Positions 3,870-52,542 of a DNA stretch of 64,000 bases are shown piece by piece; the stretch's first letter is position 1, and each line of letters begins with the position of its first letter. This DNA comes from a virus. Location: UHGV virus genome UHGV-0178594; one strand, given 5' to 3'. A program made the translations under genes and the position numbers. The notes under the pieces are model-generated. The model did no database searches. It worked only from the letters and a program-made list of their open reading frames with translations, and was not told where the DNA came from.

Positions 3870-4619
3870 TTGAATTTTTATATGAGCAAAGATTCATCAT
3901 TAGAAAATAAAGATGAAAATGTCACAGTCAGGAACACAATAGAAGAAGCCATAAGAGACAAGTTATTTAATAAGTTGTTTGCATATGTTGTGGTTTCTTT
4001 TTTAGTCGTTAACTGGCAGGATATTATTATATTATTTAAATCAAAGTACGATATATATACAACATTGTCTATAGTATGGGTTGGTGAGAAATATCACTTT
4101 CCTTATGTTGGCCCCATCATTGTATCTCCGTTTGTGGCTCATTTTGTTATGCCATTTATATATGGAACCACTGCGTCAGTGGTAATGCCTTATATAACAA
4201 TGTATATATCAAAAGCAACAGGCAGGAACTATGCAAGAATTAGATACATTGACTATGAGTTTGATTTAGAAGAGAGGGCAAGAATAAAAGAGTTGCAGAT
4301 CAACTTGAAGCAAAAAGAGAGCAAGCTTTTAAGTCTAGAAAAGCAAACAGAAGATCAATATAAATTATTGTCTGCAATTGAAGAGAAGAAGAGAGAGACT
4401 GAGAGTGCCAGAGTGGCTCTGTATCACGGCATAAAAGTAATTGTCGATGTATATAAAGCAAAAAAGAAAAGAATTTCCACCCAAGAAGATTTTGCCGATT
4501 TATTAAAAGCAATTGAAGAAAGCGATTTTTATAAAGACACTGGATTGTGGGGTATTAATAAACTAATAGATGACGTAGAGAAAATATATGAGTCTCAATC
4601 GACAACAAAGGACAAGTAA
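3870..4619 (+). CDS. membrane protein with two TM helices and long C-terminal coiled coil
   Basis: AT-rich ORF; hydrophobic segments FAYVVVSFLVVNW and PIIVSPFVAHFVMPFIYG, then K/E-rich coiled coil; terminator at 4622-4648. Confidence 0.55.
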   Translation: MNFYMSKDSSLENKDENVTVRNTIEEAIRDKLFNKLFAYVVVSFLVVNWQDIIILFKSKYDIYTTLSIVWVGEKYHFPYVGPIIVSPFVAHFVMPFIYGTTASVVMPYITMYISKATGRNYARIRYIDYEFDLEERARIKELQINLKQKESKLLSLEKQTEDQYKLLSAIEEKKRETESARVALYHGIKVIVDVYKAKKKRISTQEDFADLLKAIEESDFYKDTGLWGINKLIDDVEKIYESQSTTKDK

Positions 4620-4652
4620 TATAAAAGGCGGGATAACCGCCTTTGTTGTAAA

Positions 4653-5849
4653 TTAAGAACCTTTCTTCACATACTCCATAAACATTTTTTCAGCTTGCTC
4701 AGGTGACGTTCCTGTCATGACCAGCGCATCAATGAACGCTTGCTTCTTCAGTGCGAATTGATCGGCAAGGCGTTGCTGAAGCTCCTTGTTTTTCTGTTTC
4801 TCACGTTGCAAGGCTGCTTCTTTTGCTGCTGCCCGTTTTTTCTGTGCATCGGACAACTTTCTGGCCCTGGTCAGCTGGTCACGTAGCTTGTCAATCTTGC
4901 CGTTGTCCTTTGCCAGTTTTGTGCTTAAAGCGGCCTGGCGTTTCTGATAGAGCTTCCATTCACGTTTAGCTGCCTCAACATTCGTTTTGCTGCTACGGTT
5001 TCGATTGAACGCCTTCTCGTCTTCTTTTGTGAAGTGTTTTGTCGTGCGGCGGCGATCGTCACCAAAGGCAACTTGCGTTGCAGCTTTTTGCAGGGCGCGA
5101 GCAATACTCATCTGCCAACTGGCAGACTGTAGTCGTGTCATTGAGTGGATCACATGTTTACAGGCGACGCCTTGCAGCTTAGGGTTGCGAACTTTTGGAT
5201 AGGCGTATTCTTTTGGCGGGGCCAGGGCAAAGTTACCTGCAGTGGCGATGTAGCGATACCAGTATTGATGGCGACCGCAGTCACAATCGAAAGACACTCG
5301 CCCGGCACACAGTGATTTTGTGACTTTCAGGGCTGATTTATCGTCTTCTGCGATGTCATCGACCATCTGATCCCATTCTTCAAAACGTACCCGGACAATG
5401 TGGTGCTGGTGAACGGATATATCGGACGCTTCCACGCGGATATTAATCACATTGTGACGAAGAGATACGGGCGTAGCTCTTTTGATACCAGAACCGTCGT
5501 CTACGGCGTTATTTGCTCGCTTAATATCGATAGCCTGGCTGGACGCTACCAGTTGTGCGTATGTAATGCCAGCCGTCTTGCTGTCGTATTTTTCGCGAGC
5601 TTTGCTTCGCAGCTTTTCGAAGCCTTTCAGATCGTCACGCGTAAAGAACGTGCCGCCTTTCTTTTTCCCCAGCTTAAGAATGTCTTCGGCTGATTTATTC
5701 CTAAGCCTGCCCGGCGTGAGTGTCCTGTTCGCCTGGCGGCGTTTGCGGTTTTGCTCTTTCCTGATGAGTTCAAATACGCGTGTGAAATCCTTAGAGGACA
5801 GGCCGTCAGTGATATATCGCCCGTCCTGATTTTTCAGGAAGTCAGGCAT
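4653..5849 (-). CDS. SWIM-type zinc-finger protein with basic coiled-coil C-terminus
   Basis: 398 aa; CxC...CxH motif (FDCDCGRHQYWYRY...GVACKHVIH); K/R/Q-rich tail. Confidence 0.55.
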   Translation of the reverse strand: MPDFLKNQDGRYITDGLSSKDFTRVFELIRKEQNRKRRQANRTLTPGRLRNKSAEDILKLGKKKGGTFFTRDDLKGFEKLRSKAREKYDSKTAGITYAQLVASSQAIDIKRANNAVDDGSGIKRATPVSLRHNVINIRVEASDISVHQHHIVRVRFEEWDQMVDDIAEDDKSALKVTKSLCAGRVSFDCDCGRHQYWYRYIATAGNFALAPPKEYAYPKVRNPKLQGVACKHVIHSMTRLQSASWQMSIARALQKAATQVAFGDDRRRTTKHFTKEDEKAFNRNRSSKTNVEAAKREWKLYQKRQAALSTKLAKDNGKIDKLRDQLTRARKLSDAQKKRAAAKEAALQREKQKNKELQQRLADQFALKKQAFIDALVMTGTSPEQAEKMFMEYVKKGS

Positions 5850-6171
5850 TTTCTATCTCCGGTGCCGAGCCAGCGTAATCGCGAATCTTGTTTCTTAGCC
5901 ATGCTGCGTCAGGAAGAGTTAACGTTGTCCCTACCGGCATTTCTTCCATTTCTGACTCATGGCCCACCAGCACGCGAAATACCCAGCGCAAATCAGCGTT
6001 GCCATAGGCGCGATAGGCCGCCAGGTCTGAGCGATAAACCTCATCAATTTTTATCGTGTACTGGAAATTATCGGAGTGATACTCCGATACCCGCTTGATC
6101 ATCTCCTGATGGAATAGTGCGCGCAGCACATCGTCTTCAATGCATCGATCGTCGAGCCTGCTGTAACTCAT
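5842..6171 (-). CDS. hypothetical protein
   Basis: 109-aa ORF overlapping start of downstream SWIM gene by 8 nt (translational coupling). Confidence 0.45.
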   Translation of the reverse strand: MSYSRLDDRCIEDDVLRALFHQEMIKRVSEYHSDNFQYTIKIDEVYRSDLAAYRAYGNADLRWVFRVLVGHESEMEEMPVGTTLTLPDAAWLRNKIRDYAGSAPEIENA

Positions 6172-6502
6172 AACAGTTCCTCACAGTCATAACCTGGGGG
6201 GAACTGTATGCAGGGTGTGAAATGCGAGAAACAGACAGGCCACCAGTTCAGGGGGATGTGGTTCATAAATCCCCTCACTGGTGACAAGTGACTTTCATTA
6301 ATCTTTATGCGGGGGCCAGCTTCATTGTTTGCTGGCTGTAGATTAAAAATTAAATAGTGTGAATGACATGGACGTTATTCTCGAATTGTTAAAGCTAATT
6401 GTTCTGTTTATGAACGCCTCGTTGACCACGCAAATACTGGCGTTAGTATTTTTGTTACTCTTCTACCTGGTATTAAGGGAGTTAACAAAGCTACTGAGTT
6501 GA

Positions 6503-24323: not shown

Positions 24324-24591
24324 ACTACAGACGCGTGTAGAGGAACTTGAAAAAGAGAACACTGGCCTCAAAAAAATGCTGGCACGGGCAGAAAGGGAGT
24401 TATCTGGCAAACTTCTGCCAGAAGAACTGCCACCAGCAGATATACCAAAGCGAGTGTCTCGGTGGATGAAGTCTTTTTGTTTGCCGTGGGAGGCGTTTTG
24501 GTGCTACGACCATCGCAGATGGTGTGATGAACTTGATAGCAGTTTTCCCTACTTTGCGGAAGGTAACACCTGCCCTCAATGCAGGGGATAG
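24295..24591 (+). CDS. hypothetical protein
   Basis: 98-aa ORF with coiled-coil N-terminus and Cys-rich C-terminus. Confidence 0.35.
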   Translation: MRRVMPTKAELQTRVEELEKENTGLKKMLARAERELSGKLLPEELPPADIPKRVSRWMKSFCLPWEAFWCYDHRRWCDELDSSFPYFAEGNTCPQCRG

Positions 24592-24926
24592 CATTTAACG
24601 AAATCGATCACCCTATCCTGAACTTCGGAAAGAAGGTATTTTTCACGAGCCAGGACGTCAGGATATTGACGTTCTGGCCTTACCAGATGCCGGAGCTTCC
24701 CATTAAGCAGAATGGCCTCAGAAAACACTTTTACGCTGTGCTTTATCCCCTCTGTTTCACTTTTCAGCGTCAAAATAAAGCGCAATTGCTTGTTAGCCTG
24801 ATTCAGATTCAATACCCGAATTTGCAGTTCGTCTATGCTATTTCGCAATGGGATTGATGCCACCACACTGGTGCAGTCTCTGATTGTCTGAATTGAACGG
24901 CTAACATTGAGAACGTTATTGTGCAT
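24576..24926 (-). CDS. hypothetical protein (paralog of 25234..25584)
   Basis: Shared N-terminal motif ...SIQTIRDCTSVVASIP vs ...SMQTIRTNTAVVDSFP. Confidence 0.45.
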   Translation of the reverse strand: MHNNVLNVSRSIQTIRDCTSVVASIPLRNSIDELQIRVLNLNQANKQLRFILTLKSETEGIKHSVKVFSEAILLNGKLRHLVRPERQYPDVLAREKYLLSEVQDRVIDFVKCYPLH

Positions 24927-24958: not shown

Positions 24959-25231
24959 GTGTCAGATCGAAATATAGCAGCTAAAAGCAAGGAAGAGCGA
25001 GACAAGGTGAACGTAGACCTTGCCGCCAGCGGCGTTGCTTACAAAGAACGGCTGAATATACCTGTGATTGCAGAGCAGGTGGCCCGTGAGCAACCGGAAA
25101 ACCTGCGCGCCTATTTCATGGAACGGCTACGGCACTACCGGCTGTTAAGCCTCCAGTTGCCAAAAGGGAGCGATCCGGTGTATCAGAACGAGGATGCGAA
25201 AAAAAATAACGGCAAGATGGGGGAGACTTAA
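24959..25231 (+). CDS. hypothetical protein
   Basis: 90-aa ORF between inverted paralogs. Confidence 0.4.
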
Positions 25232-25233
25232 AC

Positions 25234-25584
25234 ATGCTTAACTATCACGACAACACGCGTTCTATGCAGACAATCCGCACCAATACAGCGGTGGTCGATA
25301 GCTTTCCTGTACATACTCAAGGCCGTGAAGATACCGTGGAAGTGCGACGCATGTTGTGTCGCCGGTCACCGGGCCACCAGCACTTCATCGTAACGTTTAA
25401 AAGCGATGTAGAGCGCGCCGAGAAAATCTCTAACTCCACATCTCTGGTTAAGCCGTTAGCGGAGGTTATTGTGCGCAACAATAAGGCGCGCTTTGTCCTT
25501 GAGGAGCATCATTCTGATTTTAATGAAAAAATCGAGTCAAGCATTTTGCAATATATGAATGGCACGTTCACGCCACCAATGTGA
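25234..25584 (+). CDS. hypothetical protein (paralog of 24576..24926)
   Basis: See paralog; ATGA-like coupling with upstream ORF. Confidence 0.45.
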   Translation: MLNYHDNTRSMQTIRTNTAVVDSFPVHTQGREDTVEVRRMLCRRSPGHQHFIVTFKSDVERAEKISNSTSLVKPLAEVIVRNNKARFVLEEHHSDFNEKIESSILQYMNGTFTPPM

Positions 25585-25645
25585 TTAGCCCCCAGCGTGG
25601 CGCGCGTACAAACCCCGCTTTCACAAACTATGCCTTTTCAATGTA

Positions 25646-25665
25646 TACTGTATGAATAAACAGTA
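25646..25665. promoter_or_regulatory. LexA box (SOS operator) upstream of umuD-like gene
   Basis: TACTGTATGAATAAACAGTA matches CTGT-N8-ACAG consensus, ~20 bp upstream of ORF start. Confidence 0.75.
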
Positions 25666-25683
25666 TTATTGAGGTAAAACGCT

Positions 25684-26073
25684 ATGGGCTTCCCTTCTCC
25701 TGCGGCGGATTATGCAGAGAGCCGTATTTCTCTTGATCAGCAACTAATCAGACATCCTTCTGCGACCTACTTCATGCGGGCGGCAGACAGCCATCACCGT
25801 GAGGGAATATTGCAAGGTGCTTTGCTGGTGGTTGATTCCTCACTTACTCCGGTTGATGGTTCACTGCTTATATGCGCTATGGAGGGTGAATATCGCATAA
25901 AGAGATACAGGAAGTATCCGCGCCAGCACCTGGAGGATTTAAGCACCGGGAAGAAAGAGGCGTTACCAGTGGATGACGATGGATACACGGGCAGTAATGC
26001 TGTTTTTGGTGTGATCACTCATGTCATCAATGATGCCCGAAGTGGGGAATTTGATGATTGTCCGGTTATTTAA
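25684..26073 (+). CDS. UmuD'-like protein (P1 HumD-like, S24 peptidase fold)
   Basis: Strong similarity to UmuD core (GFPSPAADY...HPSATYF...VFGVITHV); 129 aa; LexA box upstream; no umuC adjacent. Confidence 0.7.
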   Translation: MGFPSPAADYAESRISLDQQLIRHPSATYFMRAADSHHREGILQGALLVVDSSLTPVDGSLLICAMEGEYRIKRYRKYPRQHLEDLSTGKKEALPVDDDGYTGSNAVFGVITHVINDARSGEFDDCPVI

Positions 26074-26145
26074 GCTGCAAAGTGCTGGTGCTTTATGCCT
26101 GTGAAGTTTATAATTGTGTACACATAACGAGTACACGAGGTGTTT

Positions 26146-26367
26146 ATGCAATCCATTAACTTCCGTACCGCGCGCGGCAACCTTTCTGAAGTGCTCAACA
26201 ATGTTGAAGCCGGGGAAGAGGTTGAAATCACCCGCAGAGGCCGTGAGCCAGCAGTAATTGTCAGCAAGGCTACTTTCGAAGCCTACAAAAAAGCGGCGCT
26301 GGATGCTGAATTTGCATCCCTGTTTGACACCCTGGACTCCACCAACAAGGAACTGGTTAACCGATAA
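26146..26367 (+). CDS. phd: Phd antitoxin (prevent-host-death)
   Basis: [39 protein letters not shown] matches P1 Phd as I recall it. Confidence 0.85.
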
Positions 26368-26747
26368 TGAGGCATATATCACCGGAAGAACTTATTGCGC
26401 TTCATGATGCGAATATAAACCGCTACGGCGGCCTGCCGGGAATGTCAGATCCGGGTAGGGCAGAGGCCATTATCGGGAGAGTTCAGGCAAGAGTTGCCTA
26501 CGAAGAGATCACCGACCTTTTCGAAGTCTCCGCAACCTACCTGGTGGCTACAGCGAGAGGGCATATATTCAATGATGCCAATAAGCGTACCGCGCTAAAC
26601 AGTGCGCTGCTATTTCTACGCCGTAACGGTATACAGGTATATGATTCTCCCGTGCTGGTGGAACTTGCGGTGGGGGCTGCAACTGGTGAAATCCCCGTAT
26701 CTTCAGTAGCGGAAAAACTACGTGAACTATATGGTTCCAATATTTGA
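26367..26747 (+). CDS. doc: Doc toxin (death-on-curing, Fic fold)
   Basis: [17 protein letters not shown]...[11 protein letters not shown]; ATGA-coupled to phd. Confidence 0.85.
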
Positions 26748-51582: not shown

Positions 51583-52542
51583 TCATCCCCGAAAGCCCTC
51601 CGGAATTGACCAGTCTTCCCGGTCAAATTCAGACCGATAGCCACGCTGTATCATCAGGTCAAATGCTTCATTGATGGTTGCACATCCCTGGGAACCAGAA
51701 TAATCCATAGAGAAATCCAGGGCGCTGGATCGTTTGGGCTTATTCACTGTGGTAGCACTACGTAACCATGCAAATTTTTTTGCCAGTTTTTCAGCGGTAC
51801 GATACAGAGCCTGCCGTTTTGCGTACCCCTCGTCTGAACGACGCTTTGCAGCTCTCGCTTTTGCTGCCGCCAGGCAGTGGTTGGTATGTTCTTCCCTGAT
51901 TACTGTTTTTTTATCCAGCAAGCCATTATCCGCTTGAGAACTATCTGCTGGTGAAGCCTTTGGCTGAACCGCGCATGATCTTTCTCTTCTTTTGGCTATA
52001 GAGTGACTCTTATTTTCTATTGGCTGTTCATTTTGAACATGGGGGGGCTTGTTCAATTTGAACAGGGGGTTCCCAGTTTCAAAAAAATAACGAACCTTTG
52101 AAATCAACTGCTTAACCAGTTTTGTGGCGTTGGCAAATTTGATGCCCTGCTTACTCCCTATCTCCATTGCTACATGAATGAAGTGGAGAAATTGTGTTGT
52201 AAACCGGTACACGTTACACACCTGAGCATTGTTATTCGCTACCTGATGCTGCTTAACAAGCATTCCGCACTTCGTCGCTTCGGCAAATGCCCGGCGCACA
52301 GTAGAAATACTGCGTCCTGTAATCTCGGACATATCCGCATATGAGCGACGGATCATGTATTCATCGGTAGCTCCTGCCAGGTTGGCGAACTCGGCAATAA
52401 TGGCGCTATGTGAAGGGGAAAGAAAACCGCTATGACGAGCAAAAAAACTCAACTGATGACCTTTGATTTTTTTGTGGTATTCAGTGTTGTTTTTATACTC
52501 AGAAGTGTTGAAAGTAACTGAAACTGAATTTAAAATACTCAC
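51583..52542 (-). CDS. RepL-like replication protein (lytic replicon type)
   Basis: N-terminus MSILNSVSVTFNTSEY...; internal direct repeats suggest an origin inside the gene as in P1 repL/oriL. Confidence 0.45.
   Translation of the reverse strand: MSILNSVSVTFNTSEYKNNTEYHKKIKGHQLSFFARHSGFLSPSHSAIIAEFANLAGATDEYMIRRSYADMSEITGRSISTVRRAFAEATKCGMLVKQHQVANNNAQVCNVYRFTTQFLHFIHVAMEIGSKQGIKFANATKLVKQLISKVRYFFETGNPLFKLNKPPHVQNEQPIENKSHSIAKRRERSCAVQPKASPADSSQADNGLLDKKTVIREEHTNHCLAAAKARAAKRRSDEGYAKRQALYRTAEKLAKKFAWLRSATTVNKPKRSSALDFSMDYSGSQGCATINEAFDLMIQRGYRSEFDREDWSIPEGFRG
52026..52070. repeat. two ~20-bp direct repeats inside repL-like gene (candidate oriL iterons)
   Basis: GTTCATTTTGAACATGGGGGGG and GTTCAATTTGAACAGGGGGT. 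Confidence 0.35.

Follow-up and report, generated by a model that had tools for sequence, protein, structure and literature searches.

The stretch of DNA analysed here as a whole (64,000 nucleotides, referred to as the window) contains what we regard, with a probability of roughly 0.9, as the humD gene of a D6-like phage-plasmid of the P1 group, preceded by an SOS operator and predicted to encode a HumD protein acting together with host UmuC. Gene, operator and function are already known: they were described for P1 more than 20 years ago, and a curated NCBI family model exists. The primary paper on P1 HumD is reportedly McLenigan et al. 1999, J Bacteriol 181:7005. An initial annotation of this DNA had interpreted the locus as a UmuD'-like gene that lacks the arm, is controlled by LexA and has no accompanying umuC, and this interpretation is supported by the identity with P1 HumD, by the match to the family model NF051876 and by the annotation of P1 itself. 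The following features of the region are referred to below:

24576-24926, minus strand: 116-aa ORF, phrog_2594 paralogue, on the other side of hot
24959-25231, plus strand: hot, DNA polymerase III theta subunit homologue (Pfam DNA_pol3_theta, 112.7 bits; NF008207, 104 bits)
25234-25584, plus strand: 116-aa ORF, phrog_2594, between hot and the humD operator
25620-25649, plus strand: sigma-70-like promoter candidate for humD, predicted from a 10/12 consensus match
25646-25665, no strand assigned: LexA box (SOS operator) TACTGTATGAATAAACAGTA, identified by the top matrix score and an annotated P1 counterpart
25671-25674, plus strand: Shine-Dalgarno sequence GAGG, read from the sequence, 9 nt 5' of the ATG
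25675-25677, plus strand: in-frame TAA three codons 5' of the humD start, read from the sequence
25684-26073, plus strand: humD, 129-aa arm-less UmuD'-like protein of the HumD family (HumD equivalog, 98% identity with P1 HumD)
26146-26367, plus strand: phd antitoxin (Pfam PhdYeFM_antitox; annotated at the homologous place in P1, RCS47 and D6)
26367-26747, plus strand: doc toxin (Pfam Fic/DOC; annotated in P1, RCS47 and D6)

The humD reading frame and its operator

The product of humD matches the HumD equivalog NF051876 ('HumD family translesion DNA polymerase') over residues 1-129 of 129 with 218.1 bits, the cut-off being 120, and is 98%, 96% and 95% identical to the HumD proteins of P1, RCS47 and D6, respectively. 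In full agreement with the parallel to P1 humD drawn in the initial annotation, the RefSeq record of P1 (NC_005856) describes humD (P1_gp103) as 'DNA repair; functionally complements E. coli UmuD'', lists phd and doc next to it and marks its homologue of the LexA box as 'LexA binding site in the regulatory region of lxr and humD'. The protein also matches Pfam Peptidase_S24 (PF00717; 35.1 bits, cut-off 23.3) and the sequences of crystal and NMR structures of UmuD' (1umu with E=6e-23, and in addition 1i4v and 8gmt). With the model for UmuD, the autoproteolytic subunit of pol V (NF007621), it reaches 86.9 bits, which is below the cut-off of 110.

The aligned span covers residues 25-139 of E. coli K-12 UmuD, i.e. 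Gly25 onward, and the HumD start M-GFPSPAADY comes to lie opposite G25-FPSPAADY of UmuD. After its Met, HumD thus begins with the very residue, Gly, that is exposed as the N-terminus of UmuD' once RecA-mediated cleavage has taken place. The N-terminal cleavable arm cannot be encoded, because translation in this frame is closed by the TAA at 25675-25677, and a hidden upstream start that would add an arm to humD was ruled out on the same grounds. The description of the ORF as a 129-aa UmuD core homologue devoid of the arm is therefore upheld by the Gly25 alignment, the 1umu match and the upstream stop codon. The same arm-less start is shared by 102 of 120 database relatives. Some relatives (P0021, P0026, P0035, P0046, P0061, P0064 and P0067) are longer, with 148-223 aa, and a part of them is titled 'LexA family transcriptional regulator'. 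Most of the longer entries contain an internal MGFPSPA, which reads MDFPSPA in P0064, and they look like start-codon over-calls through the operator region and not like true arm-bearing forms. With a score below the UmuD cut-off, no arm and no umuC, the protein is not UmuD proper; its predicted way of working is UmuD'-like, but it is not a UmuD orthologue.

The box TACTGTATGAATAAACAGTA occurs only once in the window (25646-25665, exact search), ends 18 nt 5' of the humD ATG and agrees with the consensus TACTGT(AT)4ACAGTA at 17 of 20 positions, the three mismatches all residing within the central AT-rich spacer. All 20-mers of the window were scored with a position weight matrix, an approximate one trained on twenty E. 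coli LexA boxes from the literature, and 30 shuffles of the window served as the null. The site proved to be the top LexA-type 20-mer of the window, with 25.4 bits compared with a shuffle maximum of 18.3, and its heterology index of about 3.0 (an approximate value) lies inside the range of the strong chromosomal training boxes. Uniqueness and score are thus consistent with the near-consensus LexA box that had been proposed just upstream of the ORF. Note that the loose core CTGT-N8-ACAG with at most one mismatch is present at chance frequency (19 observed versus 20.2 expected in the window), so that the strength of the humD site resides in the entire 20-mer and only the full 20-mer score is informative. 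The other exact CTGT-N8-ACAG core, at 6161-6176, was dropped because it reached only 10.5 bits as a 20-mer.

The predicted humD promoter is composed of the -35 element TTCACA (25620-25625), a spacer of 18 nt and the -10 element TATACT (25644-25649), which shares the first 4 nt of the LexA box. Such an overlap of -10 element and box is the usual layout for SOS operators. In a consensus scan, promoter-like matches in the humD region were no more numerous than expected from shuffles; the -10 element and the geometry of the predicted promoter are kept in D6, RCS47 and divergent Cyrano-type loci, and the GAGG Shine-Dalgarno sequence is also kept in P1, RCS47 and D6. At the sequence level, 25646-25665 hence combines the hallmarks of an E. 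coli-type LexA operator, namely CTGT-N8-ACAG, TA flanks, an AT-rich spacer and overlap with a promoter, and the LexA box in the promoter region that characterizes the HumD family is likewise present in sequence. In the literature, humD is named as LexA-regulated (PMC9603915).

Gene neighbourhood, conservation and alternative readings

The gene order in the window is hot - orf116 - humD - phd - doc. Between humD and phd-doc (26073-26146), no terminator-like element was found, and SOS-induced transcription of humD could therefore read into the addiction module. The claim that umuC is missing was confirmed: tblastn with E. coli UmuC yielded no umuC in the 64-kb window (best E 0.25) and, at 80 related loci, none in the 3-kb flanks of humD (threshold E<=1e-5). 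The gene thus stands alone, as is typical of the HumD family, and is not accompanied by an adjacent umuC-type Y-family polymerase gene.

The two phrog_2594 ORFs flank hot on opposite strands, are 35% identical to each other and gave neither a Pfam nor an NCBIfam match. The plus-strand copy (25234-25584) occupies the place of P1 lxr. Two phrog_2594 ORFs arranged around hot in this manner were present in only four of 80 related viral contigs.

Judged by its sequence, the window belongs to an E. coli phage-plasmid of the P1 group that resembles D6 and is not P1 proper. Similarity to P1 is limited to the part from 25636 to inside doc, and the neighbouring genes (repL, dut, DUF2829 and isaA-like) correspond to those found in phage D6 and in E. 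coli phage-plasmids of about 90 kb. Plasmid prophages resembling D6 have been recognised as a group (PMC6799933).

Conservation was assessed in 80 IMG/VR viral contigs, each encoding a HumD protein at least 95% identical. A high-scoring LexA box resides 18-19 nt 5' of the ATG in every one of these 80 humD loci, and CTGT-N8-ACAG is kept in all 13 sequence variants of the box. The humD region with the box is furthermore present in 643 PLSDB plasmids. Compared with P1, RCS47, D6 and Cyrano, dN/dS of the window humD amounts to 0.04-0.09 at dS values of up to 0.72. In the Cyrano-type loci the upstream DNA is otherwise unrelated, yet the box TACTGTATGTGTATACAGTA and the TATACT -10 element are retained. 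Conservation of the box in 80/80 loci and across unrelated flanks, together with the low dN/dS, implies that gene and operator function and are inherited together in several kinds of element, and box and gene appear to be passed on as one module from one phage-plasmid family to another.

Two further settings of the gene were encountered. In phage Cyrano (L006) and Shigella sonnei p38 (L007), both phage-plasmids of about 110 kb, a humD copy together with its own LexA box (1510-1935) shows 87% DNA identity, adjoins apbC/minD-like and metG genes and is unlinked to phd-doc. In Salmonella and Citrobacter chromosomes (L111-L116, about 4440-5390), HumD-family genes encoding proteins of about 70% identity are found at the ends of P2-like prophages, where they are divergent from a gene for an 80-aa DinI-family protein (dinI). 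The common intergenic region of humD and dinI contains one or two LexA boxes, of 24 bits and 10-17 bits, and no Y-family polymerase (IMS-family) gene is present among the called genes of these chromosomal loci. This gives the impression of a compact SOS cassette with a layout other than the humD-phd-doc order of P1.

In the window as well as in 48 of 80 related loci, hot is located shortly upstream of humD, which might indicate that HumD and Hot act on the replisome and not on UmuC. By modulating Pol III (alpha, beta and epsilon), they would serve the plasmid-prophage as a checkpoint for damage or as a module that protects the replisome. Going by its title, a study by Silva et al. 2012 (listed in PMC4713147) reports that umuD gene products bind Pol III subunits. 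However, hot of P1 has its own late promoter and P1 humD has a separate LexA-controlled region, and humD is found without hot in Cyrano-type elements and chromosomal prophages. As the published complementation of UmuD' by P1 HumD (PMC7092418; note in the P1 record) suffices to account for the gene, we consider a replisome-directed role improbable.

A different function could be suspected from the protease residues. An alignment to UmuD and HumD had been proposed beforehand as a check on the catalytic residues, and it places Ser36 (codon 25789-25791) opposite the nucleophile Ser60 of UmuD and Lys73 (codon 25900-25902) opposite the general base Lys97. HumD thus has the domain match, the Ser nucleophile and the Lys general base by which a peptidase S24 is recognized in sequence. 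The statement of the initial annotation that the region of the Ser-Lys dyad is altered applies to the flanking motif, which reads AADSHH in the window HumD and SGDSMI in UmuD, but not to the dyad, as Ser36 and Lys73 are both present. Among 116 HumD-family proteins with 66-96% identity, Lys73 is kept in 113, the position of the nucleophile is occupied by Ser in 80, Thr in 35 and Ala in one, and the preceding position, corresponding to the Asp of GDSM, varies between R, A, C, D and N. The drift between Ser and Thr and the degenerate GDSM motif suggest a relaxed constraint on catalysis. Going by UmuD' genetics, a pre-cleaved UmuD' homologue should need no protease chemistry in its role as a polymerase accessory, and drift of the protease motif is thus expected for a protein that is made already cleaved. 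The earlier doubt about activity, which had been based on ADSHH, was consequently not warranted: with Ser and Lys retained, the changed motif does not call the accessory-subunit function into question.

Cleavage of UmuD can occur between the subunits of a dimer. It is therefore conceivable that HumD is mainly a trans-acting S24 protease or heterodimer partner which, as part of mixed dimers, uses Ser36 and Lys73 to cut the UmuD of the host or some other S24 substrate and in this way speeds up activation of pol V, without being the accessory subunit itself. The retention of Ser36 in the window and the near-invariance of Lys73 in the family would fit such a role. Replacement of the nucleophile by Thr in 35 relatives and the free exchange of the preceding Asp are, in contrast, difficult to reconcile with selection for catalysis, and P1 HumD is reported to complement UmuD' directly. 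Hence, we consider trans-acting proteolysis as the main function very improbable. Finally, the notion that humD is a decaying umuDC remnant behind a chance or relic match to a LexA box, with nothing functional left, could invoke the absence of umuC nearby and the changed GDSM motif but is refuted by dN/dS, by the conservation of the full-length 129-aa form in hundreds of plasmids and contigs and by a box that scores above all shuffles and is maintained in 80/80 loci across unrelated flanks.

A second LexA-like site within repL

It had also been stated that the window contains no other LexA box. At the sequence level this is wrong, because TACTGTTTTTTTATCCAGCA at 51901-51920 scores 21.8 bits, a value exceeding that of every shuffle (maximum 18.3). 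The site lies in the following gene:

51583-52542, minus strand: repL homologue, 319 aa, containing 51901-51920

Read on the gene strand, the site is TGCTGGATAAAAAAACAGTA; it specifies L-L-D-K-K-T-V, which falls into a linker of RepL that is poorly conserved. The RepL protein of the window is 94% identical to D6 RepL and 28% identical to P1 RepL. The site is present in D6 and in 21 of 22 IMG/VR relatives; wherever the box is present, the core CTGG-N8-[A/C]CAG is invariant, and the 5' flank is hypervariable. In the close relative L091, an in-frame deletion of 12 nt removes the site. The contig from which L091 derives also supplied L008, which among the humD loci is closest to that of the window. 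A comparable LexA-like site was not detected in P1 repL, where the best score was 2.9 bits.

These data raise the question whether host LexA controls two points in the D6-type lineage, the humD operator and a LexA-type operator in repL at 51901-51920. We consider this unlikely. The codons for L-L-D-K-K-T-V alone could explain the conservation of the site, and the pattern seen in the 22 relatives and D6 does not separate coding constraint from operator function. If the site were nevertheless an operator, it would establish a direct link between the SOS state and lytic replication, given that the lytic origin of P1 (oriL) lies within repL.

Proposed regulation and comparison with known systems

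In the best-supported reading, which is the one published for P1 and has SOS-controlled HumD working with host UmuC, dimers of host LexA would occupy 25646-25665 in an undamaged lysogen and shut off humD, since the box overlaps the -10 element and the start region of the predicted promoter and would thus occlude it. Upon DNA damage, activation of RecA would lead to self-cleavage of LexA and thereby to transcription of humD. As HumD starts at the equivalent of UmuD Gly25, the cleavage step would be skipped: the protein would be made directly in its activated form, bypassing the slow RecA-mediated conversion of UmuD to UmuD'. A HumD dimer would then combine with UmuC encoded by the host to a pol V-like translesion polymerase, and with the host providing this partner, the element could do without a umuC gene. 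Lesion bypass and mutagenesis would then set in earlier or be stronger, which would be of advantage to the replicating plasmid-prophage. The sequence identity of gene and box, their geometry and conservation, the purifying selection and the absence of umuC are established here directly; what we infer is that LexA occludes the promoter, that a HumD2-UmuC complex forms in this element and that the element gains a selective benefit, and for this particular allele LexA binding, the promoter and the interaction of HumD with UmuC are predictions. Replacement of UmuD' in concert with host UmuC is a function reported for P1 HumD, which by analogy is probably also that of the allele studied here.

The picture of the family as a whole, with a protein that is always arm-less, a gene that is always preceded by a LexA box and never located beside umuC, and a protease motif that drifts, supports the accepted model. 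The copy in the window confirms a P1/D6-type phage-plasmid with a standard SOS-inducible humD-phd-doc cluster, and no new biology follows from it.

UmuD homologues borne by plasmids or ICEs include MucA, RumA, ImpA and SamA. All four are mobile-element-borne, SOS-linked accessory subunits of Y-family polymerases and belong to the S24 type (PMC7092418, PMC11541004). They have kept the cleavable arm, and each is encoded in an operon that also contains the gene of its polymerase (such as mucB or rumB); neither is the case for HumD. E. coli UmuD/UmuD' (1umu, 1i4v, 8gmt) shares 43-45% identity with the window HumD over the UmuD' core as well as the equivalents of Ser60 and Lys97, and E. coli umuD also has a LexA box about 20 nt 5' of its start codon. 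Unlike UmuD, HumD lacks the arm of 24 residues together with the Cys24-Gly25 cleavage site, contains an insertion of four residues and a C-terminal extension of about ten residues, is not encoded in an operon with umuC and remains below the NCBIfam cut-off for UmuD.

The closest agreement is seen with P1 and D6. P1 HumD has the same length of 129 aa, 98% identity, the same MGFPSPAADY start and the same AADSHH motif, and differs in three residues, the allele of the window having A11 for V, I63 for V and G103 for C. The LexA box is located at the same place (18 nt 5' of the ATG in the window, 19 nt in P1) and differs at two spacer positions (GAATA in the window, AAATG in P1); phd-doc follows downstream and umuC is missing in both. 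While the operator of P1 is shared with the divergent lxr gene, lxr is absent from the window and its place is taken by a co-directional 116-aa phrog_2594 ORF, so that read-through transcription from upstream could differ from that in P1. The backbone of the window also differs from that of P1 in being D6-like. D6, in turn, deviates from the window by an extra orf109 between humD and phd, by a truncated hot gene and by the lack of a second phrog_2594 copy, but its orf108, annotated as UmuD-like protein, encodes a HumD of 95% identity, is preceded by an identical LexA box and has the same repL, dut, DUF2829 and isaA-like neighbours.
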